DNA from: an uncultured Alphaproteobacteria bacterium
GTDB taxonomy: Bacteria > Pseudomonadota > Alphaproteobacteria > CAAHEQ01 > UBA3637
Length of the DNA: 64,000 nucleotides
Direction of reading: 5' to 3'
Assembly (NCBI GenBank): GCA_934202735.1
Contig: CAKPYH010000004.1
Coordinates: 73,407-137,406, forward strand
Below the pieces are notes generated by a model. That model was not told where the DNA came from and did no database searches. It saw nothing but the letters and a program-made list of their open reading frames with translations. This document shows positions 13,129 through 63,795 of this stretch, piece by piece (within the stretch, counting starts at the first letter, position 1; each line of letters opens with the position of its first letter). The translations under genes were made by a program, and so were the position numbers.

Positions 13129-13140
13129 TTAAAAACTCCT

Positions 13141-18643: not shown

Positions 18644-18644
18644 T

Positions 18645-37987: not shown

Positions 37988-39052
37988 TTATTCTTCGCTA
38001 TTTCGTATATATGAAACACCACGTGTTGTTCCTAGTTTTGTTAAATATCCTTTCTTTATCAAACTTTGCACAGATTTACGAATTGTTTCAGAATTTTTTC
38101 CCGTCTTTTTAACAATGTCAGCAATACTCATTTCTGAATTGCCTGCAAACTGGCTCATAATTTCACGTGCAGTTGGAGATAATTTATCTGTATCTACTTT
38201 TTTGATGTTTTTAATTTTATCTTCTAATGCATGTTTTTGCTTTTGAAGTGATGTGACAAAGAAGGTTAACCAAGGTTCATAATCAACCTTATCACTCCAT
38301 ATTGTTTTTTGTGTTCCACGTAAGGCCCGATAATAAGCATCTTTACTTGCTTCGATAATTGATTCCATTGAAGTATACGGCATATAACTGTATTTGTTTT
38401 TTAGCATCAATAAAATAGTCAAGGCACGTGACATACGACCATTTCCATCTGTAAATGGATGTATTGACAGGAAATGAACGAGGAATATCCCAATTGTGAT
38501 AATGGGATGCAAAAATCGATCTTCAAAAGTATCGTTTGTCCATTTAATTAATTCCCTCATCAGGTGGGGTGTATCAAAAGGAGAAGCAGTCTCAAAAATA
38601 GTTCCGATTTCTTTTCCTGTTGCATCGTAAGCAGCTACCCGATTACTATCCTTTTTGTATTCACCACGATGACGTTCATCCTTAGAAGAGTACTTCAAAA
38701 GAATTTGATGTAGCTGTTTAATATAATTTTCCGTTAGAGGGATATCATTGTAATTTTCAAATATCGTATTGATTAAATCAGAATATCCTGCAACTTCTTC
38801 CTCATCACGAGACTTAAAAAACTTTTTGTTGATATGACTAAATAACTCCTCAATTTCAGCATCGGTCATTTTATTACCTTCAATACGGTTAGAAGAACCG
38901 ACAGACTCAATCGTTGCAACCCGTTTCATAACTTTTAATTCGGCAGGTGTTAATTTAGATAAATCTATACTCCATGAACCAACGAATTGATCAATCTCAG
39001 CAATTTTATTTAACATATCTGGTGTGATAACAATATCTTTAATCCTTGGCAT
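37988..39052 (-). CDS. Fic/DOC family protein with C-terminal winged-helix domain
   Basis: HPFTDGNGRMSRA canonical Fic motif HPFx(D/E)GNGR. Confidence 0.85.
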   Translation of the reverse strand: MPRIKDIVITPDMLNKIAEIDQFVGSWSIDLSKLTPAELKVMKRVATIESVGSSNRIEGNKMTDAEIEELFSHINKKFFKSRDEEEVAGYSDLINTIFENYNDIPLTENYIKQLHQILLKYSSKDERHRGEYKKDSNRVAAYDATGKEIGTIFETASPFDTPHLMRELIKWTNDTFEDRFLHPIITIGIFLVHFLSIHPFTDGNGRMSRALTILLMLKNKYSYMPYTSMESIIEASKDAYYRALRGTQKTIWSDKVDYEPWLTFFVTSLQKQKHALEDKIKNIKKVDTDKLSPTAREIMSQFAGNSEMSIADIVKKTGKNSETIRKSVQSLIKKGYLTKLGTTRGVSYIRNSEE

Positions 39053-39131: not shown

Positions 39132-40649
39132 TTACTCTATAGACCCTATTTTATCATTATTCGGCGACGTTTTTTCCTTCTTTCGGGTTAAATTTTCTAT
39201 TGTTAAACCTAATTCGGCGAGTTTAGCTTTTTCTCTCGCACGTTGTTCCAAAACTTCTTCCCAGTCCAAGCCTTGACCGGCACATTCGGCCTCTAATGTA
39301 GAAAGCCCGATATCCATTCGGATTTGGCAGGCCTGAGCTTCTTTGACCGGGTCAACCCAACCGCGACCTGGACCGATCCACTTACATCTTGTGTAAGCAT
39401 AGCGGTTCTCGTAAAAGTCCGGTGCATCAACCAAGCCTTTATTGACTGCTTCTTCCAGCCAAAGCTCATAAACCGGCGTAGCCCAGTAAGTTGATAGCCA
39501 TTGCCGGCGACCGTTAAAGTATCGCCAAGCCTCTAATAAAGCAGAACGGGCGAACGAGTAATTGGTCTTTGAGAAGTCTTTTAACAGCAATTCATAAGGA
39601 ATGTTCAACCCTGTGCCAATATGTCGGAGCAAGTTTTCAACGAAAGCACCATATGCCGAGTTCGGGCGAGACGGGGTAAATGGGGCGACCTTATCTCCGG
39701 GGAATATCGGGATAATCGAGCCACCCTCTAACTTAACTTGCCAATCTTTTTTGGCATTCAAGTATTCATCGCTTGAACCACCGAACAGTTCGTTTAAACC
39801 TTCATTATCCATTGGTGTTTCTATAAATGCGGCGATCATCGCGTTGACAATTGCGGCTTGAAGCTCAGATCGTTCATAATGATCCAACATTTTGAACATC
39901 GGCATTATGGAGCTCAGAACAGGTTTCCCACGGGATTAACCGATACGGTTGATGTCGTGAACGTGTAGAACTCGTCTCCGGCCAAAACTCGTGGTTGCCG
40001 GAATACGCTCCCAAGACTTTAGGTCTGTCCAAAAGTCGCCCGGGTGGTCCTTTTGAATATAGTAGGCAATCGGTGCGCCATACTGATCAATTTCAATACC
40101 ACCGCGGAGGGTCTTGCTATCCGTTTGACCGTTTGGATTTGAGAGCCGGTCCGGTTCCACCAATTGAATTGCGGTAGAGAACGGTCGATCTTTCAGCCAA
40201 AGTGGTATGGCCAAAGCCTCACCATTAATCAGGCAAGATTTGAAAACTTGTGTTGTTAGGCCATGAAAAGTTAAGGACTTGGCCGCATCACATTCAAAAG
40301 TTTCGGACCAGGATCGCCATAAACTTTCAACATGTGCCTGCCATTCTTCTTCCCATTCCTTGGTTTTGCCCAGTAGCCGATAGTCAGACTTGGCCGATAA
40401 ACGAAACCCGGTGCCGACAATGTTGTCGGACAAGGTTTGCATAGCACCGGCGGCAATTCCATGATTACGCGTTAAGTCACGCGACCGGGCAACGATCGTG
40501 TCCAATTCCGGTAGTAAGTCGCTGTCGGCTGAACCGCGGCCCGGTAGCCATGAGGCAATTTCTCGCAAAGTTTGCGAAGCTGCTTTGTGTGATGTGTCTG
40601 TCATTATTTTATCCAATAAAAAAGCCAGGTACAAAGCCCGACTTTTCAT
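39132..40649 (-). pseudogene. Lambda-type phage portal protein (gpB family) split into two ORFs
   Basis: ORF 39936-40649 matches portal N-half, ORF 39132-39905 C-half; 30-nt gap with stop. Confidence 0.65.
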
Positions 40650-40693
40650 TAATTATTTTAAAAATTAAAACCAGTTATCCATCTGAGGATAAT

Positions 40694-41920
40694 TTATTGT
40701 TTTTGACGCATTCTTTGAAGTAGCATCATCTTATTTGGCGTATCTTGTAATGTACTAATAAAAAAGTTTCTAAACGCAGTAACATCTTCTTGTTTTGGAG
40801 TAAATAATTTCCAAATATGATTTTTTAACATAAGATTTGAATCCCGTGCCGCAGGCTTCATATGAGTATTGTTATACAAATTAAGACCTATGCGCTCCGC
40901 ATAGTACTCACTTCTTATAATAGATCCGACAAAATCATTTACAGAAGGATGGCGATAGCTTTTTGATTTTAAATAACGTACATAATCAATACCTGATTTT
41001 TTTAAGTGTTCAATGGCGTGTTCCAATAACTTATGCCCCGGATAATTGAAAGGTGTCATAAAATCAAATTTACTTAAATCAAACCGCTGTTCTTTTTCAC
41101 CTACAGAAAAACGATAATAATTAATCCAATTATATTGAATCGCCCCACATAAAAAATTCAAATCAGTGTTTTTCATTTTTTCGGTAAACCAATCCATCGT
41201 CTTTCCTGTACCAACATTATCATCAAGCAACACAACAGATTTTGCTTGAGCTAATTTTTCAGGGTTAGACATTAAATCAAAAAAATCATTTTTCTGACTT
41301 AATAGCGCTAACTCTTTTTCATCTTTTATGTATGTACTTTTTAAAAAATTACTATATTCCGCTCCATACATTGATTTCAAAAAAGGTCCAATATACAGGG
41401 AACCATATCCAGGCGTAATGATATGCGCATTATCCGATAAAGATAAATTTTGACAACAAATATACAATAAAGCCTTATTATCCAACTCAATAGCTCTCTC
41501 AGCTGACATTTTATTACCAGCGGGTAAAGTATCTTTTGACGGGACTATATCATTTTTTGAAAAAATACGAATGATGTTAGTTGCATCATCTTCTAAACAT
41601 CGTTTGCTCTTTTCGTATTCGTCAGAATTACTTTTATTTATGATATATTCAGGCAAGTTTGCATAATACACTTTTGCAGAACAATTCAGCATATTTTCAA
41701 GAATCATAAAGTTTCGCTTACTTGGTTCCCGGGTCAGAAACTTCTTTAGACATTCTCGTCTATTTGAAAGTTCGGTTGCGGTTTTTGGTTCATAATAACC
41801 AGAAGACCTTGAAAGGTATTCTTTTTCCGAAATCGGCGTGACAAAACTTTCTAAACCGACCACATCTTGTAAAGTCATAATCCCTAATACGTCAAATTCA
41901 GAAAGCTCTAATTGTTCCAT
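40694..41920 (-). CDS. Type I phosphoribosyltransferase-domain protein (408 aa)
   Basis: VVLLDDNVGTGKTM = PRPP-binding motif (cf HGPRT VLIVEDIIDTGKTM). Confidence 0.55.
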   Translation of the reverse strand: MEQLELSEFDVLGIMTLQDVVGLESFVTPISEKEYLSRSSGYYEPKTATELSNRRECLKKFLTREPSKRNFMILENMLNCSAKVYYANLPEYIINKSNSDEYEKSKRCLEDDATNIIRIFSKNDIVPSKDTLPAGNKMSAERAIELDNKALLYICCQNLSLSDNAHIITPGYGSLYIGPFLKSMYGAEYSNFLKSTYIKDEKELALLSQKNDFFDLMSNPEKLAQAKSVVLLDDNVGTGKTMDWFTEKMKNTDLNFLCGAIQYNWINYYRFSVGEKEQRFDLSKFDFMTPFNYPGHKLLEHAIEHLKKSGIDYVRYLKSKSYRHPSVNDFVGSIIRSEYYAERIGLNLYNNTHMKPAARDSNLMLKNHIWKLFTPKQEDVTAFRNFFISTLQDTPNKMMLLQRMRQKQ

Positions 41921-41931
41921 ACAAATAGCCT

Positions 41932-42552
41932 TTATTTCATTTGTTTTAAAAAATGAACTAAACTATTCAATTGTTTTTCAAACTCATATCTTGTAAAAAC
42001 AGTCTCTGTCTTAGCCTCTTTCCCAATAGAATGTAAAATATAACGATCAACTTTTTCCAGCGCTTGGCGATAAAGTGGATTTTGAAGGGCAGAAATATAA
42101 ACTTCATCAACTAAATCATCATATTCAACGCTGTGGCGATTTATTTTTTCCCCTTGCCAAAAAACCTCGCCCGTTTCTTTCCAGTCATAAGAAGATGCAT
42201 TTTGAATATAAACAGCATCTAACCCCGTATAGGAAAAAACATATTTTTGCACTTGGGGCTCTGGAAATTTAATTCCTTGAAAAAAAGATTCGATACTGTG
42301 CAACTGCTCTCCCCTCAATTCAAACTCGTAAGGGAATAAGTTAGACAGCAATTTTGACAGCGGATTTTTTAATTTATAGCCAACGTTAATCCATGAATCG
42401 CAAACAGGTATAATGTTGTTTTCTTCGTCTTCCAAAGGAAAACCGTCACAAAAAGCTTTATCATGAACGTATGTAATTTCTTTTTGAGAAAAAGCATAAT
42501 TTTTCTTAAACTCTTGAAACAAGCGCAGTTCTTTTTGAATACTTCTTTTCAT
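41932..42552 (-). CDS. NADAR (YbiA-like) domain protein
   Basis: FELRGEQLHSIESFFQGIKF matches YbiA FAAWPIKVDGKTWPTSEHYFQAQKF core. Confidence 0.5.
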   Translation of the reverse strand: MKRSIQKELRLFQEFKKNYAFSQKEITYVHDKAFCDGFPLEDEENNIIPVCDSWINVGYKLKNPLSKLLSNLFPYEFELRGEQLHSIESFFQGIKFPEPQVQKYVFSYTGLDAVYIQNASSYDWKETGEVFWQGEKINRHSVEYDDLVDEVYISALQNPLYRQALEKVDRYILHSIGKEAKTETVFTRYEFEKQLNSLVHFLKQMK

Positions 42553-42639
42553 TTTTCCTCCATTTTCTTCATTCTAACTTATCTAATCTTTTTTCTCAAG
42601 AAAAATTTCAGTTTTCAAAAGAAAAACTTGTAATAAATT

Positions 42640-42876
42640 TTAAAAACTCGCTTTCAAAATCCTCCGACGACAGGTTGCTGAGCCTTCGACTGCCGCAATT
42701 TGTGATTTAAGAGAACTGATATAACTTTCAAGGGCCGTCCGGCTGGTTTGATTGTAAGTGGTGGAACCGAAATTCCCGACACTGACCGAGACTTCCTTTT
42801 CACCGATCATCAATTTATGGTAGGCTTCTTCGGCCTCAGCCAGCCTGGTTTTCAAGGTTTCTACCTTTATAGCCAT
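42640..42876 (-). CDS. Phage head-tail joining protein gpW-like
   Basis: LKTRLAEAEEAYHKLMIGEKEVSV..ESYISSLKSQIAAVEG resembles lambda W; lies between terminase and portal. Confidence 0.55.
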   Translation of the reverse strand: MAIKVETLKTRLAEAEEAYHKLMIGEKEVSVSVGNFGSTTYNQTSRTALESYISSLKSQIAAVEGSATCRRRILKASF

Positions 42877-43484
42877 GGATCATTTACCTTTGTTGGTTGA
42901 ATTTGAATGAATTTCGGTTGTTTTTTAATCTTTATCTTTTCGCTTGTTTGGGTCGGTATAGCCGATTCAAGCTCTTGCCAGCCGCGCTCGGATATCCGAT
43001 CAAGACCATATATCGCCGCACCGGCACGCGCATAAACGCGGCAGTCCAACGCTTCGTTTCTTCGAGCCGGGTCCTTTTCCCAGACCGATTTTGGATAACC
43101 GTTGGTCACCTTGACTACCTGGCGTTCGGCCGTCAGTTGTTTGAAATACTTCTCAGCGTATGCCGGGAAGTGACAGCGGCCGAACTGCGAGGCATCTTCG
43201 CCCACACGTTCTATCTTCAGCCACCGGTAAAGCTCGGTTTTGATAACCGGACCGGACACGTTCCACACCTTCAGGCCTTTCTTTTTCGTATCAGCCTTTA
43301 AAGTGGACAGGATCATCGCGGTGTCGCGGCTTTGACCTTTGATGGCGACAACAGTCCTTGGCGCATTGGCCCGGGCACCATTGCCACCCCAAGCAGCCTG
43401 ATTAAACGGACGGACAAACAAATACACATCTTGCGGGACATAAATGGTATTGAGTTTGATGTATATCCGATTTTCAAAATTCAA
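42867..43484 (-). pseudogene. C-terminal fragment of terminase large subunit (gpA-like nuclease region); N-terminus replaced by AT-rich DNA
   Basis: Position upstream of W, NEALDCRVYARAGA-type segment, only 205 aa. Confidence 0.4.
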
Positions 43485-43524
43485 ACAAATTAATAAAAAT
43501 CCTATTAGACAAGGATTAAAGTCT

Positions 43525-43941
43525 TTATTTCTTTAACCGCATGGCATTAGGAATCTGTTGAAAACCAAACTTTTTATAAAAATTCGGCAAACATGGGTTC
43601 TTTGGATCATAGAACAAACTAACCGTGGCAAAATTTTGCGCTTTAACATACTTAATGATTTCTTTCATCAAGATCGTTCCAATGCCTTGCCCATGATAAT
43701 TTGGATGAACCACAACATCATAAATCATACACATTTCTGAATCATCTACACATCGGGCAAAGCCTACAGTTTTTCTTCCATCCAATACAGACACCATAAA
43801 GGTAGATTGCTTTTTGACTACAGGCCATTGATCCGGACGATAGTTTCCCCACTTCAATAAGGAATGGATTTCGTCTATATCTTTTGTGTTAATGCGTTTT
43901 CCAATTTTAACTGATTTTTTCATTTTAACCACTCCTTGCAT
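43525..43941 (-). CDS. GNAT family N-acetyltransferase
   Basis: VVHPNYHGQGIGTILMKE motif. Confidence 0.75.
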   Translation of the reverse strand: MQGVVKMKKSVKIGKRINTKDIDEIHSLLKWGNYRPDQWPVVKKQSTFMVSVLDGRKTVGFARCVDDSEMCMIYDVVVHPNYHGQGIGTILMKEIIKYVKAQNFATVSLFYDPKNPCLPNFYKKFGFQQIPNAMRLKK

Positions 43942-44408
43942 GGGTTGCTCTGTTTTAAAATGTCTTTTAAGAAGTCATCAAATCTATTATCACAATTAGT
44001 AGCCCATCCGTACTCTGAATGTTCAGGACTTAGAGTTATCGTAGGCTCGCTTGATAATATTATTTCATAATTAAACTGAATATCATGTTTAATCCTATCT
44101 GTTTTAGAAATCTCTTCCGACACTCCTATTAACTTTACTTCTTTTTTGGAAATATCAAGGTCAACTTCCTCTTTCAATTCACGTTTAAGTGCTGAACATA
44201 AACTTTCTCCAGTTTTAACACCACCACCGGGAAATTCCCAAACATTTGGTAAAAAGTTATCTGCGGGGGATCGTTTTACAAGTAGAACTGTACCATTGTA
44301 AATGATTAATGCACAAACAGATAGTTTTATTTCTTCATTCATTAGATTAACCCCCTCTAATCCTTTTTCGTTTATCTCTTTTAACTGTTGCACCGTTAAT
44401 TTGAACAA
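43920..44408 (-). CDS. Nudix hydrolase
   Basis: GGGVKTGESLCSALKRELKEEVDL Nudix box. Confidence 0.75.
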   Translation of the reverse strand: MFKLTVQQLKEINEKGLEGVNLMNEEIKLSVCALIIYNGTVLLVKRSPADNFLPNVWEFPGGGVKTGESLCSALKRELKEEVDLDISKKEVKLIGVSEEISKTDRIKHDIQFNYEIILSSEPTITLSPEHSEYGWATNCDNRFDDFLKDILKQSNPCKEWLK

Positions 44409-44426
44409 AGCCCGACGATCCCAACG

Positions 44427-44752
44427 TTAAAAAACTTTTTTGATTTCGATACCGACTACTCCAAATTTATTTTGGGCTGCTGGTTTATAAAATTCCTCCA
44501 ACACCCTCAACAATTCTTCTTTTGAAGAAACACCTGCTCGATTAGGCTGAATAATGCTACATAACTCATCAAAATTTCGAGCGTGGTATAAATTTTTTAC
44601 AACTGCAGTAAAAGTATCGTTAGAATTTGAGGCATTGGCAAAAATGATGTTATCTCCAACCTTGATTTTTTACGCTTTTCATCAAAAAGACGCAATTCTA
44701 TAGTTTTACTACCTGATTTTAACAAATTATAATATTTTGTTTTAACATTCAT
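44427..44752 (-). pseudogene. ASCH-domain gene with frameshift in T6/A6 homopolymer
   Basis: Manual translation: MNVKTKYYNLLKSGSKTIELRLFDEKRKK (GxKxxExR) then frame change near 44666-44671, continues ..AVVKNLYHARNFDELCSI.. Confidence 0.45.
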
Positions 44753-44772
44753 GCTATGCATTATATTTCTCC

Positions 44773-45348
44773 TTGCATAATAAAAAAATAAAAGTTATAC
44801 TATCTATGTATAGCAAAAGGAGAAAAAATACGCAAATAAAAACTTATAAATCTTTTCACTCTGAACACAGTCTTTTATACAAAGATATGTTGGATTTAAC
44901 ATTGTCCATTAACAAGACTTACCCGAGATATACCGCTTGGTATAATAATACTTTTATTCCAGGATTAAAAAAGAATGAACGAATGTATATTGTCGCTTTA
45001 GACGATCAAAATATCCTTGCAGGCTGTATTTTTGCAAAAAATACACCAGATGAAAAAAAGATATGTACCTTATTCGTTAATCCTTTGTTCAAACGTCAAG
45101 GTATCGGAAAAAAGCTTTTAGAAACTGCCATAAAAGAACTAGGAGAACTACCTTTAATCACCGTATCTAGCAGAAATATTTCCCAATTAAAACCTTTATT
45201 AGATCATTTTGGTTTTCATTTATCCGCTACCAAAAAGGGAATATATGGCCAAAATGATACAGAGTTTTATTTTAATGATAAAAAAGCAGATTTAATACAA
45301 AAAGGATTACTTCCAATTCTTATTCAACAAATGCAACACTCAAGATAA
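44773..45348 (+). CDS. GNAT family N-acetyltransferase
   Basis: LFVNPLFKRQGIGKKLLETAI motif. Confidence 0.65.
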   Translation: MHNKKIKVILSMYSKRRKNTQIKTYKSFHSEHSLLYKDMLDLTLSINKTYPRYTAWYNNTFIPGLKKNERMYIVALDDQNILAGCIFAKNTPDEKKICTLFVNPLFKRQGIGKKLLETAIKELGELPLITVSSRNISQLKPLLDHFGFHLSATKKGIYGQNDTEFYFNDKKADLIQKGLLPILIQQMQHSR

Positions 45349-45495
45349 CTGTGTTAAGTCATTTTATGTTGGCAACATTTTTGCGTGTTTTGTTGCACCG
45401 TTAAATGGACAATGTGGTTTCTTTCTTTCATTAAATGTATGCGAAAAACGCCACCAACCGACGGATAATAAAAATATGGTTTCTTTTTCAATAAA

Positions 45496-46218
45496 CTATC
45501 CCCTAATTCCTAACAGGACAAAAGGAGTTGCATTATTAGGTGATAATTTATCCCTTTCTATCCAAACTGCACCATTTGAATCCAATCCATCCCCTTTTTG
45601 GGATGGCTTCCCCGCTATCATACAATCATACAGGATGCCAAAATGTTGCATAACGCCCTGTTCCCCGCTTTCTTTTGTAAAATCTGAAAAAATAACCTCT
45701 TTCTTCCTTTTGTTGCGAACAGAACACAACATGCAATTTGTTTCCTCCCTAATTTCACGAGCAACCGTTTGTTCGGGACTTTCACCTATTTCCGGACTAC
45801 CGCCGGGCAAGTCATAAAGCCCTGTATATGGCCCCCGCGCCTTCCGAATCACCAATACCTTATTTTGTTGCATAATGACACCGTAAACACCCCGATGTGT
45901 TCGCGTTACACGGCGATCACGTATAAGAAGATGGGCCTTTCCCTGCTCCAATTTATACAGATAATTTTCTATTTTTTGATTGCGATAAATTTTATGATTT
46001 GCTACCGTAATTAACACATTTTCCCCTTCTTTTTGGCGCCTTAAAATAGCGATACAGTCAGCATGACATGTTTGTCCGGAAATTTTTCCCAAAATATAAA
46101 CAGGAATTTTTGACTTATTTTTTTCCAAAAGACACCCTTGATAAACCTTTGATGATTTTTTTTCTACCTGATGAATGACAATTTTTTGTCCTAAATAATG
46201 GGTTGGAATATGATCCAT
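45496..46218 (-). CDS. Nudix hydrolase with ~110 aa N-terminal extension
   Basis: GLYDLPGGSPEIGESPEQTVAREIREETN Nudix box in C-terminal half. Confidence 0.6.
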   Translation of the reverse strand: MDHIPTHYLGQKIVIHQVEKKSSKVYQGCLLEKNKSKIPVYILGKISGQTCHADCIAILRRQKEGENVLITVANHKIYRNQKIENYLYKLEQGKAHLLIRDRRVTRTHRGVYGVIMQQNKVLVIRKARGPYTGLYDLPGGSPEIGESPEQTVAREIREETNCMLCSVRNKRKKEVIFSDFTKESGEQGVMQHFGILYDCMIAGKPSQKGDGLDSNGAVWIERDKLSPNNATPFVLLGIRG

Positions 46219-46746: not shown

Positions 46747-47430
46747 ATGCCCGCATTTCGTAGACTTACCATTCCTGTTGACGTGGCCAAGATATTTGCC
46801 TTGATTGCCATGACGGCCGATCATGCCCCGAAAGTATTAGCTCTACCCGGGATTATCAATGACACCTTGGGTCGTATGGCTTTCCCGTTGTTTGCTTTTT
46901 TGATTATTCAAAATTACTGTCGGACACATGCTTTTTGGAAATACGCGGTGCGATTGGGGATATTTGGTGTGATGACCAGCCTGATTGTAACCCCGTTTGA
47001 TGGTACGTTCAAGAATGTTTTATTTACCTTTTTATGGGGTCTTACATTCTTGGCCGCTACCGAACATATATGTCGGCGAATCCGGTCGTTCGTTTGGCAG
47101 GCTTATTGGCTGAGTGGTATTTTATTGGCCTTGATGCCGTTGATTTTAATGTCGGATTACGGTCTGTGCGGCTTTTCGTTTTTGTTGGCTTTGTATGCGT
47201 ATCGGAGCCTTCCTAACCGAATCAACACAGTGGCCGTATTTTTAACCGCCGCTTTCTTAAACATATCGGGAATCGTACCGGTAGCCGTTACCTTGATTAC
47301 TGTCGCCGGATTGATCTACAGGGTCCGTTTGCAGGGAGGCAGCCGCTTGATCCGATGGTGGGGATTTTATGCGTACTATCCCTTGCATTTAGTCATTTTA
47401 TATGCCATCCGCACATGGTGTGGCGGTTAG
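46747..47430 (+). CDS. traX: TraX family membrane protein
   Basis: N-terminus IFALIAMTADHAPKVLAL and multi-TM profile. Confidence 0.5.
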   Translation: MPAFRRLTIPVDVAKIFALIAMTADHAPKVLALPGIINDTLGRMAFPLFAFLIIQNYCRTHAFWKYAVRLGIFGVMTSLIVTPFDGTFKNVLFTFLWGLTFLAATEHICRRIRSFVWQAYWLSGILLALMPLILMSDYGLCGFSFLLALYAYRSLPNRINTVAVFLTAAFLNISGIVPVAVTLITVAGLIYRVRLQGGSRLIRWWGFYAYYPLHLVILYAIRTWCGG

Positions 47431-47454
47431 CGAAAACACGAAAGGAGAAAAATC

Positions 47455-47835
47455 ATGACATTCAAAATTCTTGTATCCGGGATAACGGCCCTGTGCCTGA
47501 CGGCTTGTGGCAGTGAGTCGGCCTCAATCGCGGGCCATGAATACATGTACACACCGGTACCGGATATGGAAATCACACTGGGGTTTGACGCACATGAGAA
47601 TCGGTATTATGGGCATGCCGTCAATGCTTATTTCGGAACTTATAAAGCCGATGGTAAAACGATGAAATTATCTCCGGCCGGTACCACCTTGATGATGGGC
47701 CCGCGGTCGCACATGGAAGCCGAGCGCATTCACTTAAATGATTTAGAGAATGTCCGCCGGTATCTGGTAGATGAACATACGTTGACTTTGATTCTGGCCG
47801 ATGGACGCGAAATCACCCTGACACGCCGGGATTAA
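47455..47835 (+). CDS. META-domain lipoprotein (HslJ-like)
   Basis: Lipobox LTAC; YFGTYKADGKTMKL..TTLMMGP..E..HL..L..YLVDEHTLTL pattern of META domain. Confidence 0.55.
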   Translation: MTFKILVSGITALCLTACGSESASIAGHEYMYTPVPDMEITLGFDAHENRYYGHAVNAYFGTYKADGKTMKLSPAGTTLMMGPRSHMEAERIHLNDLENVRRYLVDEHTLTLILADGREITLTRRD

Positions 47836-48812
47836 GGACACAAGGGTAAAATCCGGGCAGCGGTAGCCCCATGGCCGTGCAAGATCAACCACAAGCACAC
47901 TTTGTGCTTGAATTTCAGGCCGTCATAGGAAATAATACCCCGGGCGAACAAATCGCGAAAGGCCGGTTCCATGTGGCGAAACAATGCACGGCGCAAGCGT
48001 TTATTCTTCTGTTTGCGGACCGCGGCATTCATCACCATTTTGACCCGTTTGTTCAAAATCGCCCGACGGACGGCGGCCAAATCAGACGGACGATGTTGAC
48101 GGATATCATCATAGACGGCTTGTATCACAGTCAGATAACTGTCTATTTTACGATTGTCAAAAGACGACCTTAGGATAGAAGACGGGCTGAGATAATAGTA
48201 GTACAGTTCATATTTGACCTGGGCCAACATGTGGATAGACGACAGGATATGTGTCGTGAACGGGACATCTTCAAAAAAGATACCGGGGATAAAACGTGTT
48301 TCCCCGATCGCCGATCGCCGATACAGGCGGGTACAAACCCCGGACACAATATCATCGCGATCCAAAAAGGCATGAAACGGATCCAAAATAATTTCCGGCA
48401 AGATATTCGTTTCCAAAACGGGAAAAGGGGCCGGGTAAGTCTGATTCGTCTTTTTTCGGATACACCCGGCCACATCGGCCCCCGTTGTTTCCAACGCCCG
48501 AACCAGCATTTCCAAGGCCTGGGGATGCAGATAATCATCCGAATCGCAAAAGTAAATATACTCGCCCCGCGCCTGTTCCAAGCCCCGATTACGGGTCGCG
48601 GCCAATCCGCAGTTTTTATGGTGCAACAAGATAAACCGATCATCACCCGCCATAAAATCCTGAACACATTGACGGCTGTTATCCGTAGACCCGTCATCCA
48701 AGCATATCACTTCAAAATCACGATATGTTTGATTTTGCAACGCGGTCAGGCATCCAACCACATATTTTTCCACATTATAGATAGGAACAATTACACTGAT
48801 TTTCGGGGACAT
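47832..48812 (-). CDS. Family 2 glycosyltransferase
   Basis: ISVIVPIYNVEKYV..ICLDDGSTD..YFCDSDD motifs. Confidence 0.8.
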   Translation of the reverse strand: MSPKISVIVPIYNVEKYVVGCLTALQNQTYRDFEVICLDDGSTDNSRQCVQDFMAGDDRFILLHHKNCGLAATRNRGLEQARGEYIYFCDSDDYLHPQALEMLVRALETTGADVAGCIRKKTNQTYPAPFPVLETNILPEIILDPFHAFLDRDDIVSGVCTRLYRRSAIGETRFIPGIFFEDVPFTTHILSSIHMLAQVKYELYYYYLSPSSILRSSFDNRKIDSYLTVIQAVYDDIRQHRPSDLAAVRRAILNKRVKMVMNAAVRKQKNKRLRRALFRHMEPAFRDLFARGIISYDGLKFKHKVCLWLILHGHGATAARILPLCP

Positions 48813-48816
48813 TTTT

Positions 48817-49608
48817 TTACTTCCAATATTCATCAATCCATTTTACCGGTTCGGTATGTTTATACAGGCGTTTCAGGCCACGGGGATATTTGGAATCATC
48901 GGGATTAGAACACCAGATTCCCAGGCGGGCATCTTCCATGCCGGGCATGCCGTGAAACGCCACCATTTTCAGTCCCGGCCATTTGGGGATCTTGGGCATC
49001 ATCCACCACCGAAACGGCATGGGTGGCAGGCAATGAAACCGAAAAGAGCAAAACCACTTTTCCGGCCAAAAATTCAAATGTCCGTACTTTTCAATAACTT
49101 TACTGGACAGATATTCCTGAGACGCGGTATAAAATTGATCCACCACTTCTTCGGGATGATCTTCAAAATACTTTTTAATATACCCCAACGTCCCCACAAC
49201 CCAGGAATAACAACTGGCCTGTCCCACGTGCTTCCCTTTGCTGTTCCAATCATTGATAATATAAAACTTGTCGCCCTGCGGATAGCGGAAAAACTCATCC
49301 AAATTGCCCACGATTAAAGAATCCAGATCAAAATAGAATACCCGTTGACCGTTCAGGCCCCCCAGGTTATCATCACACAGGCCCGCTTCTTTCCGATAAG
49401 CATATTTGTTTTGTTCGGGGCGCACGTTCAAATGCGTCATCGGACCCGCTATAATTTCGGGATCCAATCCTTTCGGGTCATCGGTAAAGCAATAAAAATC
49501 AATATCAAAGGACGTATGACGTTTAATCATGTGATACAGTTTATTCACATCGTCCACCGGATACCAATTTCCCCATTTCAGGCAAATGACATTATATTTT
49601 TCGGACAT
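48817..49608 (-). CDS. Putative glycosyltransferase / nucleotide-sugar transferase-like protein (start MSEKYNV)
   Basis: Adjacent to GT2 gene; weak family assignment. Confidence 0.3.
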   Translation of the reverse strand: MSEKYNVICLKWGNWYPVDDVNKLYHMIKRHTSFDIDFYCFTDDPKGLDPEIIAGPMTHLNVRPEQNKYAYRKEAGLCDDNLGGLNGQRVFYFDLDSLIVGNLDEFFRYPQGDKFYIINDWNSKGKHVGQASCYSWVVGTLGYIKKYFEDHPEEVVDQFYTASQEYLSSKVIEKYGHLNFWPEKWFCSFRFHCLPPMPFRWWMMPKIPKWPGLKMVAFHGMPGMEDARLGIWCSNPDDSKYPRGLKRLYKHTEPVKWIDEYWK

Positions 49609-49633
49609 TTTACAAACCCCTTTCGTTTTCATC

Positions 49634-49665
49634 AAAAAAAAGCCTAACACATTGTCAGGCTTTTT
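49634..49665 (-). terminator. Intrinsic terminator downstream of rnj
   Basis: Minus-strand hairpin agcctgaca/tgttaggct then T8. Confidence 0.45.
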
Positions 49666-49677
49666 GCAAGTTGAAAA

Positions 49678-51378
49678 TTAAATTCGGACCAAATGAACGT
49701 CAATCAGCGGTTTTTTCCCGTAAAATTCGTTCAAAAATTTCCGAATGGCAGATCGGACCGATTGGTCAATCTGGGTATTGGACGCTTTATGTTCCGCCGG
49801 TACCTCGTCCACCGCCCGACAAATCAAATCGGACAATTTCGCCGCATCATCGGTTTCCGAATCCAACAAACCGAATGTAGATAGTTGCGGGGTGCCCAAA
49901 ACATGTCCTTTCTGATCCACCACCAACGTTACAACCAAAGACCCGTCATCCATCATTTTGCGCCGTTTGCGAATCACTTCCGCATCCAGGTGTACAATAT
50001 GCTTGCCGTCTACGGCCAAAATACCCGTTGGCACTTCACCCAAGATTTCCGGTTCATCAGACAAAGCAATCACTTCACCGTCTTCCAAGGCAAACGTAAA
50101 CGGAGTTCCGCATTTTTGTGCCAAATCCGCATGTCCCTTTAACTCCAAGGCTTCTCCATGCACCGGCAACGCGATTTTCGGCTTTAACAAGCGATAAATA
50201 GCCTGCAAATCCGGACCGGCATAATGGCCGGAGACATGGACTAAATCGTCCCGATCGGTGATGATTTTAACCCCTTTGGCCTTTAATTTGCGTTGCAACA
50301 AGGCAATGGACTTTTCATTACCGGGAATAATGCGGGACGAAAAAATCACCACGTCATCGGGCCCTAAAAAGACCGAATTTTTTTGCGGTGTCAATGCCGA
50401 CAAGGTAGACAACGCCGATCGCGGTTCACCCTGACTGCCCGTACAAATGAACAGCACAGAACCCACCGGACGTTCCAAGGCTTCCTTTTCCGATAAAAAT
50501 TCAGGCAGATCGGCAAAATATCCGGTCGCCCGCGCCGCCGCATCAATCCGCCACAAACTGCGCCCCATCAGGCACACTTCACGTCCGTTGGCTACGGCCG
50601 CCTGATAAATACTCTTGACCCGCGATACATTGGACGCAAAGCAGGTAATGGCTATTTGTCGTTCCGGATATTCCCCGATTAAACGACACAACGTCTCTTG
50701 AACATCGGCTTCCGTTTTATCGGTATGCTCGCCAAATACATTCGTAGAATCGCAGACCAGAGCCAAAACGCCCTCTCGCCCCAGGTCGCGCAAAGCATCG
50801 GTATCCATGCCCTGACCTAACACAGGATCGGTATTTAACTTCCAATCGCCGGTATGAACCACCAAGCCTTCCCGCGTACGAATGGCCAACGCATTGGCTT
50901 CCGGAATAGAGTGGTTCATGGAAACAAACTCTACTTCAAACGGATCCAAATCAATGGCCGATCCGCGTTCCACCACATGCACATCCGCCCGTCCCAACAA
51001 ACCGGCTTGTTCCAATTTATCTTCTATCAAGGCGGCAGCAAACGGTGTCGCATAAATCGGGCACAGTAAATCACGCCACAAATACCCGATGGCCCCGATA
51101 TGGTCTTCATGGGCGTGCGTAACCACCAAACCCACAATATCTTTCTTTTTATCCTCCATAAATTTGGGATCAGGCAACAAGACATCTACCCCCGGCAACC
51201 CGTCGCCGGGAAAGCCGACACCGCAATCCACCAGCAACCATTTACCCCGATATCCGTAAGCAAAGCAATTCATACCGATACCCGTTGATCCGCCTAACGG
51301 AATAAAAACCAAACTTTCCGGCGGAATTATGACTTCATTTTGTTTTTCACTCATTTTTTTCCTTATATAAAAACACAT
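49678..51378 (-). CDS. rnj: Ribonuclease J (beta-CASP metallo-beta-lactamase)
   Basis: LVVTHAHEDHIGAIGYLW HxHxDH motif, 560 aa beta-CASP layout. Confidence 0.85.
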   Translation of the reverse strand: MCFYIRKKMSEKQNEVIIPPESLVFIPLGGSTGIGMNCFAYGYRGKWLLVDCGVGFPGDGLPGVDVLLPDPKFMEDKKKDIVGLVVTHAHEDHIGAIGYLWRDLLCPIYATPFAAALIEDKLEQAGLLGRADVHVVERGSAIDLDPFEVEFVSMNHSIPEANALAIRTREGLVVHTGDWKLNTDPVLGQGMDTDALRDLGREGVLALVCDSTNVFGEHTDKTEADVQETLCRLIGEYPERQIAITCFASNVSRVKSIYQAAVANGREVCLMGRSLWRIDAAARATGYFADLPEFLSEKEALERPVGSVLFICTGSQGEPRSALSTLSALTPQKNSVFLGPDDVVIFSSRIIPGNEKSIALLQRKLKAKGVKIITDRDDLVHVSGHYAGPDLQAIYRLLKPKIALPVHGEALELKGHADLAQKCGTPFTFALEDGEVIALSDEPEILGEVPTGILAVDGKHIVHLDAEVIRKRRKMMDDGSLVVTLVVDQKGHVLGTPQLSTFGLLDSETDDAAKLSDLICRAVDEVPAEHKASNTQIDQSVRSAIRKFLNEFYGKKPLIDVHLVRI

Positions 51379-52069
51379 CTCCGGCAGTTATTTTTTGAAT
51401 GATTTTGTCCGGAGTTTCCAAAACCAATTCCCCTTGCGGGCTTAAATCCTTAAATATCCCTGACACCTTGCCGCGCGGCGTATGAACCGTCATTGTTTGC
51501 CCCCATCCTGCCGCCCGTGAAACCCAATCCCGGCGTAAAGGCTCAAAACCGTGGTTCGCAAACAGGTCCAAATTCACCGACAGGCGTTCCAAAATCCGAT
51601 CGGCAACCTGATCCCGTGTCCAGCGTCCCCCCAGATCGGCCGTCTGATACATCATTTCCCGAGTCGGGTGCGACATCACATTGACCCCTATACCGATAAT
51701 GACCCGTCCGTCTCCGGTGCCTTCCAACAAAATCCCGGCCACTTTGCCCCCGTTCAGCAAGACATCGTTCGGCCATTTCAGACGCACGCCGAAAGTCGCC
51801 AACGCCTGGGCAACCGCCACACCGGTTATCAGGGCCAACAACGGGGTTTGCGGACCGTAATCCGATAAAACGGCAGATAAATACAAGTTGCCCGGCGGAC
51901 TGATCCATCTGCGTCCCATCCGCCCGCGACCGCCCGATTGCCTGTCCGCGATAATGACGGATCCTACGGGAAAATCAAGTGCGGTTTGATTAGTGCTGAC
52001 AACTTCAACAAAAGAGTGTCTTTGCCATTTCATGGGACTTACCATAACACATTTTTTTATAAAAAGCAA
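51347..52069 (-). CDS. birA: Biotin--[acetyl-CoA-carboxylase] ligase (no N-terminal HTH)
   Basis: QSGGRGRMGRRWISPPGNLYLS motif. Confidence 0.85.
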   Translation of the reverse strand: MLFIKKCVMVSPMKWQRHSFVEVVSTNQTALDFPVGSVIIADRQSGGRGRMGRRWISPPGNLYLSAVLSDYGPQTPLLALITGVAVAQALATFGVRLKWPNDVLLNGGKVAGILLEGTGDGRVIIGIGVNVMSHPTREMMYQTADLGGRWTRDQVADRILERLSVNLDLFANHGFEPLRRDWVSRAAGWGQTMTVHTPRGKVSGIFKDLSPQGELVLETPDKIIQKITAGDVFLYKEKNE

Positions 52070-52140
52070 GAAAATCCTTGATTTTCGTTTCCTGTTTGGG
52101 ATATATTAGAGACAGTTTTTATTCAACAAGGGAGAAAAAC

Positions 52141-53601
52141 ATGAACAAATCAATCTTATTCGGATGTGTAGCCTTAACAACTCTGGCGGTGTGTGTGGCC
52201 CATGCCCAAGAAACTGCCCCTGTCGCACCGGCCCCGGCCGATCCGGCGGCAACCGCTGCGGTACCGAAAATAGAAGACATTAAAGCCACCGTCCTGTCCA
52301 CCCTGCCCGGTAACGGTAAAGCCTGGCAAGATCAAATAACCGTTACGGCGGACGGTGATGATTTTCAGGTTATCTTGCCCGAAGTCAACATTGACAAATA
52401 TGACGAGCCTGCAATCCACTTGCCCGCCGGACAAATCCGATTGACCCGTTCGGGATCCTTTGGTCAGCAAGCCCAATACAAAGCGACTTTACCGACTGCT
52501 TCCTATTTGGACTCTTTGTTCAAATCCCTGCTCTCTTCCGATGTGCAGATGACCATGAATGTATCCAAAGATGAAGTCAATCTGGTACCGGCACACCGGT
52601 TGGTTTCGGGACAAAGCCGTCATATTAAAGACATCCGCGCGGCTTCGGAAGGCATCGTTGCCACGGTTGATACGGTTGTATCAGACGCTTTGGTACGCAT
52701 GGGAACCAATCAACAGGCAGAATCGGCCAGTGAAACAGACATCAGCGGTGTGGCGATTGAAACACCGTCCATGATTATACGCATTCCACAGATCAATACC
52801 CGGTCGCACATACAGGATATGACTCCGGCGGCCGATGGTCAATACAATATCTGGACGGCCAAAACGTTGCAAGGCACGTTGGAAATACCGAAAATTTTGT
52901 TTTTTGCCGCCGGCAGTCAACCGGACGCTTTGCCTTTACTGACGATGGCACAACACGGCACAACCACCCTGCAAGGCGAAACCTTGCACTTGGAAGGGGC
53001 CGTGGATAAAGTGCAAACGGCTCTGCCCTTACCGGCAGGATTGGAATTATCCTGGAATGCCGATGTATCGGGCCTGAATCGTGATCTTTTATCCCGTATG
53101 ACGGAAGCACAGGGCGGCCTTAAACCGGCCGATCGGGATGCTTTCCTGACCGCTGCCACATTAAAAGTCAACGCATTGACCGTCAAAAGTGATGAAGCCG
53201 GCATGGCTTTATCCGGAACGGCACGCCTGAAACCCATTGTCGGTCAAAAAGCGGCCGATGCAAATACGCCCAATTTAATCCCCGATGTAGAGGCCACGTT
53301 GGTCATTACAAATCTGGATAAAATCTCTCCGCCCCCGGTCGTCAATCAAGCGGCCTGTGATGAGGCCAAAGCCCGAATCAATGCGATCAATCCCAATGGT
53401 GAACATGCCGATGCGCAACGGGAACTCTATACGGCAATGGCGGAAGATGCATGTACACCGCGTGGCGGCGCTTTGGATAATTTACGTCCTTTGTTGGATC
53501 CCAAAAATCATCAGGTTGCACCGGACGGAACAACCACGGATACCATATATATCCGCCTGACCGAAAACGGTTTGAGCATCAACGGAAAGGATGGCAATTA
53601 A
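52141..53601 (+). CDS. Secreted protein of unknown function (signal peptide)
   Basis: MNKSILFGCVALTTLAVCVAHAQ signal; Ala/Thr-rich. Confidence 0.4.
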   Translation: MNKSILFGCVALTTLAVCVAHAQETAPVAPAPADPAATAAVPKIEDIKATVLSTLPGNGKAWQDQITVTADGDDFQVILPEVNIDKYDEPAIHLPAGQIRLTRSGSFGQQAQYKATLPTASYLDSLFKSLLSSDVQMTMNVSKDEVNLVPAHRLVSGQSRHIKDIRAASEGIVATVDTVVSDALVRMGTNQQAESASETDISGVAIETPSMIIRIPQINTRSHIQDMTPAADGQYNIWTAKTLQGTLEIPKILFFAAGSQPDALPLLTMAQHGTTTLQGETLHLEGAVDKVQTALPLPAGLELSWNADVSGLNRDLLSRMTEAQGGLKPADRDAFLTAATLKVNALTVKSDEAGMALSGTARLKPIVGQKAADANTPNLIPDVEATLVITNLDKISPPPVVNQAACDEAKARINAINPNGEHADAQRELYTAMAEDACTPRGGALDNLRPLLDPKNHQVAPDGTTTDTIYIRLTENGLSINGKDGN

Positions 53602-55449
<1,848 letters not shown>

Positions 55450-55572
55450 ACTTAAACAGATAACAACTTGATTGTAAATATATTTTACACAGAACGATTA
55501 TCTATACACAAAATTAGATGTTGCATTTACCCCCTTTTTCAGGTACAATAACCCCCAGTAAAGGAGTCATTT

Positions 55573-57036
55573 ATGGATAACACATTGGAATCAAATCGCT
55601 TGCCCCCGCAAAATATTGAAGCTGAACAAGCCTTACTGGGGGCGATTCTGTCCAATAACCGTGCGTTGGAAAAAGTGTCCGATTTTTTATACCCTAAACA
55701 TTTTTCTGACCCTATTCACGGCAAAATTTACGAAGCCTGTCGCACATATATTGAGCAAGGCCGTACGGCCGATCCCGTTACCCTGAAAGCCGTCTTTGCC
55801 CATGATGAAGCCTTAAAAAATGTCGGTGGAGCCGATTACCTGATGAAACTGGCCGCGGCATCTACCACCATTATCAATGCCGCCGATTACGGGCGGTTGA
55901 TTTTGGACCGCTACATTCGGCGTGAGTTGATTGACTTGGGTACGGATATTGTCAATGATGCGTTTACAATCAAGCTGAATGAAGAAGCCTTAAATCAAGT
56001 GGAAGGGGCCGAAAAACGTCTGTATGAAATTGCCGATCAAGGGGAAAGCAGCGGCGGACCGACTCAAATCAATATCGCGTTGCGTGAAACACTCAGTACC
56101 GTTGAAAACGCCATGAAAAATCCGACCGGTTTGTCGGGTCTGACCACAGGCTTGACGGACTTGGATAAACTGTTGGGCGGGTTGCATAATTCGGACTTAA
56201 TTATTTTGGCGGGACGGCCCGGTATGGGTAAATCCGCACTGGCGACTACGTTGGCTTTTAATGCCGCCAAAGCGATGGAAGAAAGCAACCAAAAACCGAA
56301 TGCTGAAAAAAAATCCGTTGCTTTGTTTTCACTGGAAATGTCGGCCGAACAGTTGGCTACCCGTATTTTATCATCCAAAGCACAAATTTCGGGAGATGAT
56401 ATGCGTAAAGGAAAACTGACGGGCGATCAGTTTGATGAACTGGTGGCGGGTATGTCGCTGATCAACAAAATTCCTTTATATATTGATGAAACACCCGGTA
56501 TTACGGTGCAGGCTATTTATAATCGGGCACGCCGTCTGAAACGCGATAAAAGCCGTGGTTTAGGATTGATTGTGATTGACTACCTGCAACTGATCAGCGC
56601 CGGGGGGCGTAGTGAAAATCGGGTTCAGGAATTATCCGAAATGACACGAACCTTGAAAATTATGGCCAAAGATCTGAACGTACCGGTTATCTGCCTGTCC
56701 CAATTATCCCGGACGGTAGAACAACGGGATGTGAAAAAGCCGATGTTGTCGGACTTGCGTGAATCCGGTTCTATTGAACAAGATGCCGATATTGTGATGT
56801 TTGTATATCGCGAAATTTATTACCTGAAAAACGAACAACCCAAGCAAGGGGCCAATGAAACCCCCGAACATTTTGCACTCCGCACAGCCAAGTGGGAACA
56901 GGAAAAACTGGAAAAAGAAAACCTGAGTGAAGTCATTGTGGCCAAAAATCGGCACGGTCCGTCCGACACGGTTAAACTCTACTTTGCGGGTAAGTACAGT
57001 CAATTTTCCGACCTGGCCCCGACACCACAAGCCTAA
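55573..57036 (+). CDS. dnaB: Replicative DNA helicase DnaB
   Basis: NIEAEQALLGAIL.. N-domain; Walker A GRPGMGKSA; 487 aa, no intein. Confidence 0.95.
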   Translation: MDNTLESNRLPPQNIEAEQALLGAILSNNRALEKVSDFLYPKHFSDPIHGKIYEACRTYIEQGRTADPVTLKAVFAHDEALKNVGGADYLMKLAAASTTIINAADYGRLILDRYIRRELIDLGTDIVNDAFTIKLNEEALNQVEGAEKRLYEIADQGESSGGPTQINIALRETLSTVENAMKNPTGLSGLTTGLTDLDKLLGGLHNSDLIILAGRPGMGKSALATTLAFNAAKAMEESNQKPNAEKKSVALFSLEMSAEQLATRILSSKAQISGDDMRKGKLTGDQFDELVAGMSLINKIPLYIDETPGITVQAIYNRARRLKRDKSRGLGLIVIDYLQLISAGGRSENRVQELSEMTRTLKIMAKDLNVPVICLSQLSRTVEQRDVKKPMLSDLRESGSIEQDADIVMFVYREIYYLKNEQPKQGANETPEHFALRTAKWEQEKLEKENLSEVIVAKNRHGPSDTVKLYFAGKYSQFSDLAPTPQA

Positions 57037-57899
57037 GGCCGATACACCTGCCACACAGCGATCAGGTGATTTAATACCGCCGGATTTTGAACCGGCCATA
57101 CGGCGGATTGTCCGTGCAGATTTTCTTCCAAATGCGCTATATCCGGGTCCATCGGGATCAATGTCGGCATAAATCGCCGTTCAAATGCCAGTAATGCCTT
57201 GTCGGGATCGGTGATGTCATACCCGATATCGGCCAACATTTCAGGTACCGTCGGATACACACTCGGCAACTGTTCCACGGGTTCAGGGTACAACCCGATA
57301 CCGTCCTGTGCCAACGCTTTCCACGGAAATGCCGCCCCGACATCTACCTTACGTTCGGGGGCGATATCGCTATGCGCAACGATATTTTGGGGCAAAATAT
57401 CATAACGGATGATCAGATCACTTAATACATGTTTCAAAGTCTCAATTTGAGCCGGCGTAAAAGGGGTTTGCCCCAAAGTTGCATTCTGCAATTCCACGCC
57501 GATTGCCGTTTCATTTAACCGGCTTTGCCCCCGCCAAAAACTGCTCCCCGCATGCCATGCCACTTTGTCTTCGGGGACCAACCGAAACAACCGACCATCG
57601 GTATCTATCAGGTAATGTGTACTGACATTTAACGCCGCTAACCGATGAATCATATCGGGCACGGGTATTGCAAAACTGTGCAACACGATAAACTGAACGG
57701 CGCGCGTACGTTCGCTTTGGGCTGCGGTGGTCAAAATGATAGGAGACAACCGATCAGGCTCTGTGGTTCCAATGGTCGGTTGTTTCGGCTTATCCGGCCA
57801 AATCATCCGCCCGGTCTGTCCCAACATCAGGCAGAGTTGAATCCCCAACGTGATAAAAATAAAAGCCTGAAATACTTTTCGTAAAAACCGAGATCGCAT
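57033..57899 (-). CDS. N-acetylmuramoyl-L-alanine amidase, AmpD/amidase_2 family
   Basis: HYLIDTDGRLFRLVPEDKVAWHAGSSFWRG. Confidence 0.8.
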   Translation of the reverse strand: MRSRFLRKVFQAFIFITLGIQLCLMLGQTGRMIWPDKPKQPTIGTTEPDRLSPIILTTAAQSERTRAVQFIVLHSFAIPVPDMIHRLAALNVSTHYLIDTDGRLFRLVPEDKVAWHAGSSFWRGQSRLNETAIGVELQNATLGQTPFTPAQIETLKHVLSDLIIRYDILPQNIVAHSDIAPERKVDVGAAFPWKALAQDGIGLYPEPVEQLPSVYPTVPEMLADIGYDITDPDKALLAFERRFMPTLIPMDPDIAHLEENLHGQSAVWPVQNPAVLNHLIAVWQVYRP

Positions 57900-58060
57900 A
57901 AGGATACTATAAAATAATTTCTCGCAAAAGGCAAGTGATTTTTTTATTTTTTCATCTTATATTTCAACAAGATAATCCTTGTAATTTGACAAAGATATAA
58001 AATTATGCTATAATAAAACTGTAATCGGATAAACGATCATCTTTAACCAAGGAGGAAACC

Positions 58061-58459: not shown

Positions 58460-58552
58460 AAATCAAAAAACATCACGCCCCTTGTGCCATACAAGGGGCG
58501 TGTTTTTCTCATTCAGCACCGGACCGGTTCGGGGCAGACTTTCCGGAAGTGC

Positions 58553-59251: not shown

Positions 59252-59307
59252 ATATCTATATATTTATATGCTTTCCGCACAAAAATCAAGGGGAAACATC
59301 TTTCATC

Positions 59308-59336
59308 TTGCTTTTTCATCAGAAAAAAGGTATACT
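59308..59336 (+). promoter_or_regulatory. Sigma70-like promoter upstream of rph (TTGCTT-17-TATACT)
   Basis: -35 at 59308-59313, -10 at 59331-59336. Confidence 0.35.
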
Positions 59337-59371
59337 GTTGACCATTCAACAACCGAACAAAGGAGAAAAGT

Positions 59372-62437: not shown

Positions 62438-62519
62438 TCCGAAATCCTTTCATTTTCAGGCTTGAAAAAAACGACAAAATGGAGTATACCATATAAAAAG
62501 AAAAAGGAAAAGGGTTTGT

Positions 62520-63788: not shown

Positions 63789-63795
63789 TCTGCCT

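Follow-up and report, generated by a model that had tools for sequence, protein, structure and literature searches.

A NADAR and phosphoribosyltransferase gene pair in a prophage remnant

The window analysed here, a 64,000-nucleotide stretch of the genome of an uncultured Alphaproteobacteria bacterium (contig CAKPYH010000004.1), carries two adjacent genes, hereafter A and B, lodged in the remains of a lambda-like prophage. Both are encoded on the minus strand, for proteins of 206 and 408 aa, and the 11 nt between them imply co-transcription. The GC content of this cassette is 0.32-0.33, compared to 0.46-0.49 in the flanking phage genes and ~0.49-0.50 in the right-hand chromosomal flank. A sequence-only reading of the window had described two co-directional AT-rich genes 11 nt apart, placed between the phage genes gpW and portal (PF02831 and PF05136), and had quoted one motif from each protein (FELRGEQLHSIESFFQGIKF in A and VVLLDDNVGTGKTM in B), all of which we could confirm. 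It was mistaken in locating the pair in the slot of the large terminase (TerL), as a TerL fragment lies upstream of gpW. The normal lambda order of the phage genes A-W-B is thus kept, with the cassette in the W/portal junction.

Gene A encodes a NADAR-fold hydrolase, by predicted activity, of the T4 gp30.3/AdfN clade. It has the alpha+beta fold of YbiA/NADAR proteins and belongs to PF08010 (Phage_30_3; E 7e-28, 97.6 bits against a gathering cut-off of 36), with no match to PF08719 in Pfam and none in NCBIfam, and it shares 34% of 137 aligned residues with T4 gp30.3 (E 2e-17). Residues E88 and K95 align with the catalytic Glu and Lys of AdfN (E36 and K43) in an S-x-E-x(6)-K motif, H174 aligns with the clade-specific His of T4, and all three are invariant among 25 sequences. 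A profile of A searched against PDB sequences returned only spurious His-tag matches, so that structure prediction was needed.

T4 gp30.3 is AdfN, a NADAR that acts against DarTG1 and frees DNA guanine of its ADP-ribose, and its clade is distinguished by a His at the last-strand position that Glu or Asp occupies in other NADARs (PMC11125620). NADARs of the YbiA type are ribosyl N-glycosidases acting on riboflavin-biosynthesis intermediates. The phage form of the clade is a short orphan protein of T4-like phages (152 aa in AdfN), whereas A is bacterial, linked in an operon to a phosphoribosyltransferase (PRTase) and longer by ~65 aa at its N-terminus. Phage matches to A, in 700 phage records, span residues 74-203 only, and the N-terminal extension was not found in phage gp30.3.

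Gene B is predicted to encode an active type I PRTase with an intact loop for binding phosphoribosyl pyrophosphate (PRPP). Both hallmarks of the class, a Rossmann-like core fold and an acidic pair followed by TG-T, are present. The PRPP loop reads LLDDNVGTGKT, with D233, D234, T238, G239 and T241 invariant, and among 26 sequences ~75 positions are invariant over ~340 residues, including LLDDNxGTGxT, a PGYG loop and a KSxY motif, the last of which we take to resemble the catalytic loop of 6-oxopurine PRTases. At 19.2 bits the match to PF00156 falls below the gathering cut-off of 26.3, so the earlier assignment to the PRTases holds for the fold but not for the Pfam threshold; many members of the family have a precomputed PF00156 match, marked as weak wherever its strength is given. 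The best PADLOC match is the type III-A retron PRTase, again weak (E 1.6e-5), and NCBIfam gave no match. The family is HGPRT-like and tight, with 132 proteins at E <=0.001 among 1.84 billion representative proteins, none of them named.

Searches by tblastn found no homologue of B in 50,697 phage records (E 0.01) and none in a plasmid database. Only 1 of 2.9 million viral contigs (locus L051) carries B, and we rejected it as proof of a phage-borne pair because the pair lies outside the integrase/repressor end of that contig.

Two variants of B deserve mention. Versions of ~800 aa with an unknown N-terminal region of ~400 aa occur at L038:4753-7158, where the gene order is B then A, and in proteins P0276, P0280, P0294 and P0298. 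Distant homologues (32-34% identity; P0289, P0290, P0308, P0320 and P0342) carry a HisA/HisF-type barrel as a C-terminal fusion. At the two loci with such fusions, L048:7001-9244 and L050:6582-8234, an APH/RIO1-like kinase is fused or adjacent, a HAD hydrolase follows in L050, and no NADAR was seen nearby. HisA/HisF enzymes act on N-phosphoribosyl amines, and these relatives look like parts of an uncharacterised small-molecule pathway.

One-way linkage, loss of B and mobility

To describe the linkage between the two genes we have two collections. The first, retrieved through B, comprises 41 loci (12 contigs found by looking up exact matches to B and to three of its homologues, 28 GTDB species representatives and one contig of a viral collection), and A is immediately adjacent in all 41. 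The second is an A-centred survey of 80 metagenome loci, 71 of them evaluable, in which calling a locus B-less required at least 600 nt of downstream sequence; of the 71, 48 have B and 23 lack it. For the asymmetry between A and B Fisher p is ~1e-5, with the reservation that the loci are not independent. A precedes B in most loci, while in four the order is reversed, one of these having B fused to an unknown N-terminal region of ~400 aa. The spacing at other loci ranges from a 1-nt overlap to 8 nt.

Comparisons between closely related loci reveal the loss of B alone. Loci L093, L086 and L096 are 99.5-99.7% identical to L088 across the upstream flank and all of A, and the alignment to L088 resumes after a gap of 1,329 nt that corresponds to B, over no more than 38 nt in L093 and L086 and at 86% in L096. 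The same clean deletion pattern separates L078 from L011, and in L052 the stretch that begins with gpW and includes A aligns to the window at 93%, the alignment stopping 7 nt past the stop codon of A. In three GTDB genomes (L027, L030 and L037) B is frameshifted and A intact. The gene that follows A in B-less loci is mostly the usual neighbour found beyond B in related genomes, and we therefore rejected the idea that A has variable partners: ArgRS, a MiaB-like gene, a flippase and a phosphodiesterase are neighbours exposed by the deletion of B. There is one exception, a lineage whose long-form NADAR has after it not a PRTase gene but an HD_4 gene (176 aa) of the ppGpp-hydrolase type (L042:7650-8180 and L065:4641-5168). 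Taken together, the presence of A at every B locus, the 23 A loci that lack B, and the deletions and frameshifts of B indicate a one-sided dependence: B apparently never persists on its own, whereas A does.

The hosts of the cassette are mainly metagenome-assembled genomes (MAGs) of very AT-rich gut Clostridia, joined by MAGs of Bacilli and Alphaproteobacteria, and the B family is common in Clostridia of the human and animal gut. We count ~19 distinct genomic contexts across these three bacterial classes, and ordinary chromosomal genes surround most of the copies. The composition of the pair marks it as foreign in proteobacterial hosts, where its GC content is 0.29-0.33 and that of the flanks 0.40-0.49. 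In two proteobacterial genomes a tRNA gene, a typical insertion site of islands, lies directly before the cassette (L003:6970-7040 and L045:9128-9200). Upstream of A, in 10 loci and the window, we found tRNAs only and no riboswitch. The cassette is, in short, a mobile, self-contained two-gene operon.

Comparison with described systems

The sequence-only reading had seen no obvious match to described systems, but there is one: DS-32 of E. coli, an experimentally validated anti-phage system found with DefensePredictor, which consists of a PRTase (WP_000097610.1) and a NADAR (WP_032260665.1) and which its authors interpret as toxin-antitoxin partner swapping relative to DarTG. It is the closest described system, sharing with the cassette the adjacent two-gene operon of a PRTase-fold protein and a NADAR, though its proteins belong to other families. 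We took the DS-32 sequences from the supplement of the DefensePredictor paper and compared them by BLASTP and hhalign. Neither program detected any similarity between B and DS-32A, and between A and DS-32B there was no significant similarity, only a weak local match of 34 columns over the NADAR catalytic motif (hhalign probability 9.5%). DS-32A falls into PF24390 (PRTase-CE) and DS-32B into PF08719, whereas A falls into PF08010 and B into its HGPRT-like family. The cassette usually has the opposite gene order to DS-32, and the hosts differ as well, E. coli on one side and gut Clostridia and Alphaproteobacteria on the other.

NADARs are also the antitoxins of DarT1 and YarT. In both the DarT1-NADAR pair (DarTG1) and YarT with its YbiA partner, the partner of the NADAR has an ADP-ribosyltransferase fold and uses NAD+ as donor; in the cassette the fold is that of a PRTase, the donor is presumably PRPP, and the third catalytic residue, Asp or Glu in those NADARs, is His in A. 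Pfam scans of the cassette neighbours identified no ADP-ribosyltransferase domain. A further NADAR encoded with a PRTase-family protein is found in E. coli ybiA-ybiB, where YbiB belongs to the TrpD2 type (PMC11125620); by description it differs from the cassette in that YbiB has another PRTase fold class and binds DNA, YbiA is a Glu variant, and the genes are under LexA regulation.

PRTases serve as toxins or effectors in ShosTA, PsyrTA, type III retrons and Ophion, and ShosT, PsyrT, the type III-A retron PRTase and OpnC of Ophion have the type I PRTase domain in common with B. A type III-A retron unites a reverse transcriptase (RT), a non-coding RNA and a PRTase in one operon, whereas the operon described here has neither RT nor non-coding RNA and the partner is a NADAR. 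There is an RT gene near the cassette, and we rejected a retron link to it, given that it lies on the other strand, is separated by a Fic gene and portal fragments, and is not conserved elsewhere; no RT was called in nine loci for which annotated genes are listed, and Rfam gave no retron RNA in the window. PADLOC matched neither ShosT nor ShosA, and in place of a DprA-like ShosA partner there is the NADAR. NARP1 and NARP2 are defined by phage-encoded homologues of Adps/Namat or Nampt/Nmnat, while B has the type I fold and matches no phage record. T4 gp30.2, encoded downstream of gp30.3, was likewise rejected as a homologue of B (hhalign probability 0.1%, no Pfam match).

Nor do the two proteins resolve into a housekeeping salvage PRTase and an unlinked riboflavin-pathway YbiA, an outcome the sequence-only reading had considered: neither has an NCBIfam match, A has His where YbiA has Glu in the last strand, and every B locus is linked to A. 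Of its broader proposal, a NAD/ADP-ribose-centred module of defence or anti-defence, the defence part stands insofar as there is a real and conserved NADAR and PRTase module with features that fit defence or toxin-antitoxin systems. Phage anti-defence or the reconstitution of NAD+, on the other hand, is unlikely for a pair whose B gene is absent from the phage records, nearly absent from viral contigs and mostly chromosomal.

The prophage remnant and its cargo

The coordinates of the cassette and its surroundings are collected in Table 1. The lambda-like prophage carrying the cassette is defunct: it has a TerL without the ATPase half, in whose place GNAT and Nudix cargo genes sit, a portal broken in two and a truncated S49 protease. 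The two portal open reading frames (ORFs) cover positions 3-204 and 218-354 of the PF05136 profile, and the split is identical on independent contigs. No capsid gene was seen in the element.

Table 1. Features of the cassette and of the surrounding window.
Feature	Position	Strand	Match or remark
Gene A	41932-42552	-	NADAR-fold N-glycohydrolase (predicted activity), T4 gp30.3/AdfN clade, 206 aa
A domains			NADAR core, ~residues 67-206; N-terminal extension, ~65 aa ahead of the core
Gene B	40694-41920	-	408 aa; predicted type I PRTase, core ~residues 149-272
B domains			family-specific N-terminal domain, PRTase core, C-terminal helical domain
A leader, AT-rich, 87 nt	42553-42639	-	predicted sigma-70-like promoter TTGAGA-17-TAGAAT at 42599-42571
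A-B spacer, 11 nt	41921-41931	-	sequence
Downstream junction, B stop codon to portal start codon	40650-40693	-	sequence
Imperfect inverted repeat, 31 nt	40656-40686 and 42615-42645		74% complementary
gpW, head-tail joining protein, upstream cassette boundary	42640-42876	-	PF02831, E 5e-12; GC 0.46
Lambda-family portal, downstream cassette boundary, split in two ORFs	39936-40649 and 39132-39905	-	PF05136
TerL C-terminal fragment (GpA_nuclease, nuclease domain only)	42867-43484	-	PF20454, positions 156-291 of 294
Prophage element	~15200-46600		abuts tRNA-Lys
Panacea/SocA-like gene and 125-aa ORF	18266-19163	-	125-aa ORF: GC 0.25
Short retron/DRT-like RT, 248 aa	36951-37697	+	GC 0.25
SoFic-like Fic-HTH protein	37988-39052	-	PADLOC SoFic, E 1e-50
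GNAT-Nudix, GNAT and Nudix genes	43525-46218		Nudix genes: PADLOC candidate PDC-S07

In the AT-rich leader of A a consensus scan places a predicted promoter with 10/12 consensus matches, and a putative ribosome-binding site, GGAGG, matches the consensus ahead of the start codon. The cassette ends carry an imperfect inverted repeat, which may be a matter of chance in AT-rich DNA. A megablast search with positions 40000-43500 gave no match in E. coli genomes or in phages.

The prophage element is a mosaic of phage genes with a GC content of 0.45-0.51 and at least seven AT-rich cargo blocks of 0.25-0.39. Among the cargo are genes for a SoFic-like Fic protein, a short RT, a Panacea-domain protein and a UvrD-like helicase as well as several Nudix and GNAT genes, and many cargo genes resemble defence or toxin-antitoxin genes. 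The gene with the Panacea/SocA-like antitoxin domain (172 aa) adjoins a 125-aa ORF that has no annotation, and the two look like a PanA-type toxin-antitoxin pair inserted among the tail genes. The RT gene, ~3 kb from the cassette and on the opposite strand, stands beside the SoFic-like gene, between the portal and protease fragments. In the block that occupies the place of the terminase ATPase half, a GNAT gene and a Nudix gene overlap by 22 nt and are accompanied by further GNAT and Nudix genes; a similar Nudix-GNAT pair is found in L048 directly upstream of the B-like kinase-PRTase-HisA fusion. The left flank of the window (1-15000; glyQS and a sugar-modification-like cluster) has a GC content of 0.32-0.36 and the right flank (47000-64000) one of ~0.50, an odd asymmetry that possibly reflects another island or an assembly chimera. 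A relationship between the left-hand cluster (3-11 kb) and the cluster around the B-HisA fusions was rejected, because it comes down to generic DegT similarity.

Function of the cassette

We tentatively interpret the cassette as a writer/eraser pair, a toxin-antitoxin or defence system in which the NADAR would neutralise the PRTase, a reading we consider plausible and the most economical while holding it with some reserve. B would transfer 5-phosphoribose from PRPP to a nitrogen nucleophile, most plausibly an exocyclic purine amine, whether of DNA, of RNA or of the nucleotide pool, and the product would be harmful to the phage or the cell. A would hydrolyse the ribosyl-N bond made by B and so keep the host safe, and the cassette would act as a type IV-like (enzyme-against-enzyme) toxin-antitoxin or as an anti-phage module. 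Such a chemistry of ribosyl transfer and removal is plausible in view of the ribosyl N-glycosidase activity of YbiA-type NADARs and the fusion of distant B homologues to HisA/HisF-type barrels.

In favour of a writer/eraser pair are direct observations, namely the one-way dependence of B on A, the loss of B alone, the operon structure, the mobility of the cassette, and the folds and catalytic motifs, together with the precedents in the literature and the chemical fit; the donor (PRPP), the acceptor, the toxicity, its reversal by A and the anti-phage phenotype are what we infer. Several points weigh against it. Neither protein has significant similarity to its DS-32 counterpart, so that the analogy rests on the pairing of domains, and the PADLOC match of B is weak, while A has none. 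That B depends on A would be explained just as well if A provided B with its substrate. The frameshifts in B come from MAGs and could be assembly errors. Most copies lie among housekeeping genes, one context being syntenic across several Clostridia species, and the distant relatives of B fused to kinase and HisA/HisF-like domains look biosynthetic.

With such neighbourhoods and synteny a metabolic accessory function also fits, and a metabolic pair of AT-rich gut anaerobes with no role in conflict, which we judge somewhat unlikely, is the alternative that has to be taken most seriously. Either A would split a ribosyl or ADP-ribosyl conjugate and B would use PRPP to salvage the freed base or amine as a nucleotide, or B would make a ribotide that A proofreads or recycles. 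The chromosomal housekeeping neighbourhoods, some of them rich in genes of nucleotide metabolism (NrdD, a weak thymidylate kinase match, an ITPase-like NTPase), and the synteny across several species speak for such a pair. So does the resemblance of B to 6-oxopurine PRTases, the KSxY loop motif included, and so do its distant relatives, in which kinase and HisA/HisF-like domains are fused to the PRTase and a HAD hydrolase adjoins; a dependence on A is also compatible with A acting upstream of B. It is harder to explain why a metabolic enzyme is present or absent between near-identical strains and repeatedly pseudogenised, or how the pair came to spread horizontally to unrelated phyla, to sites beside tRNA genes and to the remains of a prophage. 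Were a PRTase followed by an N-glycosidase that hydrolyses what the PRTase makes, the cycle would be futile. The upstream regions of A that we searched yielded neither a riboswitch nor a regulator, no curated NCBIfam metabolic family matches, and the experimentally tested member of the gp30.3 clade acts on DNA adducts.

Alternatively, A could be the functional unit, a stand-alone repair or immunity enzyme that removes ribosyl groups from DNA or RNA, and B a dispensable nucleotide sensor or regulator whose PRTase-like domain would detect a ligand, as in PurR, PyrR or the ppGpp-binding PRTases. We regard this as quite unlikely, since the invariance of the acidic pair, the TG-T phosphate-binding residues and the ~75 other positions of B is typical of an enzyme, and B has no DNA-binding domain. 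Least probable by far is a counter-defence function for the prophage, with A as an AdfN-like anti-DarT factor and B rebuilding NAD+ or nucleotides as in NARP: the homology of A to T4 AdfN, the position between phage head genes and the phage NADARs reported beside NAD salvage genes would suit it, but B is missing from the phage database and its sole viral contig match lies outside the integrase end, the prophage is defunct and at least 40 other copies lie outside phages, the type I fold of B is not the TIM-barrel PRTase fold of NadV/Nampt, and phage gp30.3 lacks the N-terminal extension of A.

Returning to the writer/eraser pair, a more specific version would have B use PRPP to write a 5-phosphoribosyl adduct onto DNA or RNA, at an exocyclic amine of guanine or of some other base, with the gp30.3-type NADAR as its dedicated eraser. 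In this detailed form the proposal is unlikely, but if it were true, the toxin chemistry of B would be one not yet described, parallel to ADP-ribosylation by DarT and independent of NAD+. The pairing of a NADAR with a PRTase-family protein in the cassette, in DS-32 and in ybiA-ybiB would then represent a general system for writing and erasing phosphoribosylation, and phage AdfN could descend from a bacterial antitoxin and could counter such systems too.

DS-32 protects E. coli from phage, and the cassette is a second pairing of the same two folds, drawn from different families. The comparative signal that the PRTase appears unable to persist without the NADAR makes it testable whether NADARs reverse phosphoribosylation and not only ADP-ribosylation. 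The B enzymes, compact, highly conserved and uncharacterised, are now defined as a family with ~130 relatives. Furthermore, the cassette supplies bacterial relatives of AdfN that have the clade-specific His, which bears on the origin of this phage counter-defence gene.

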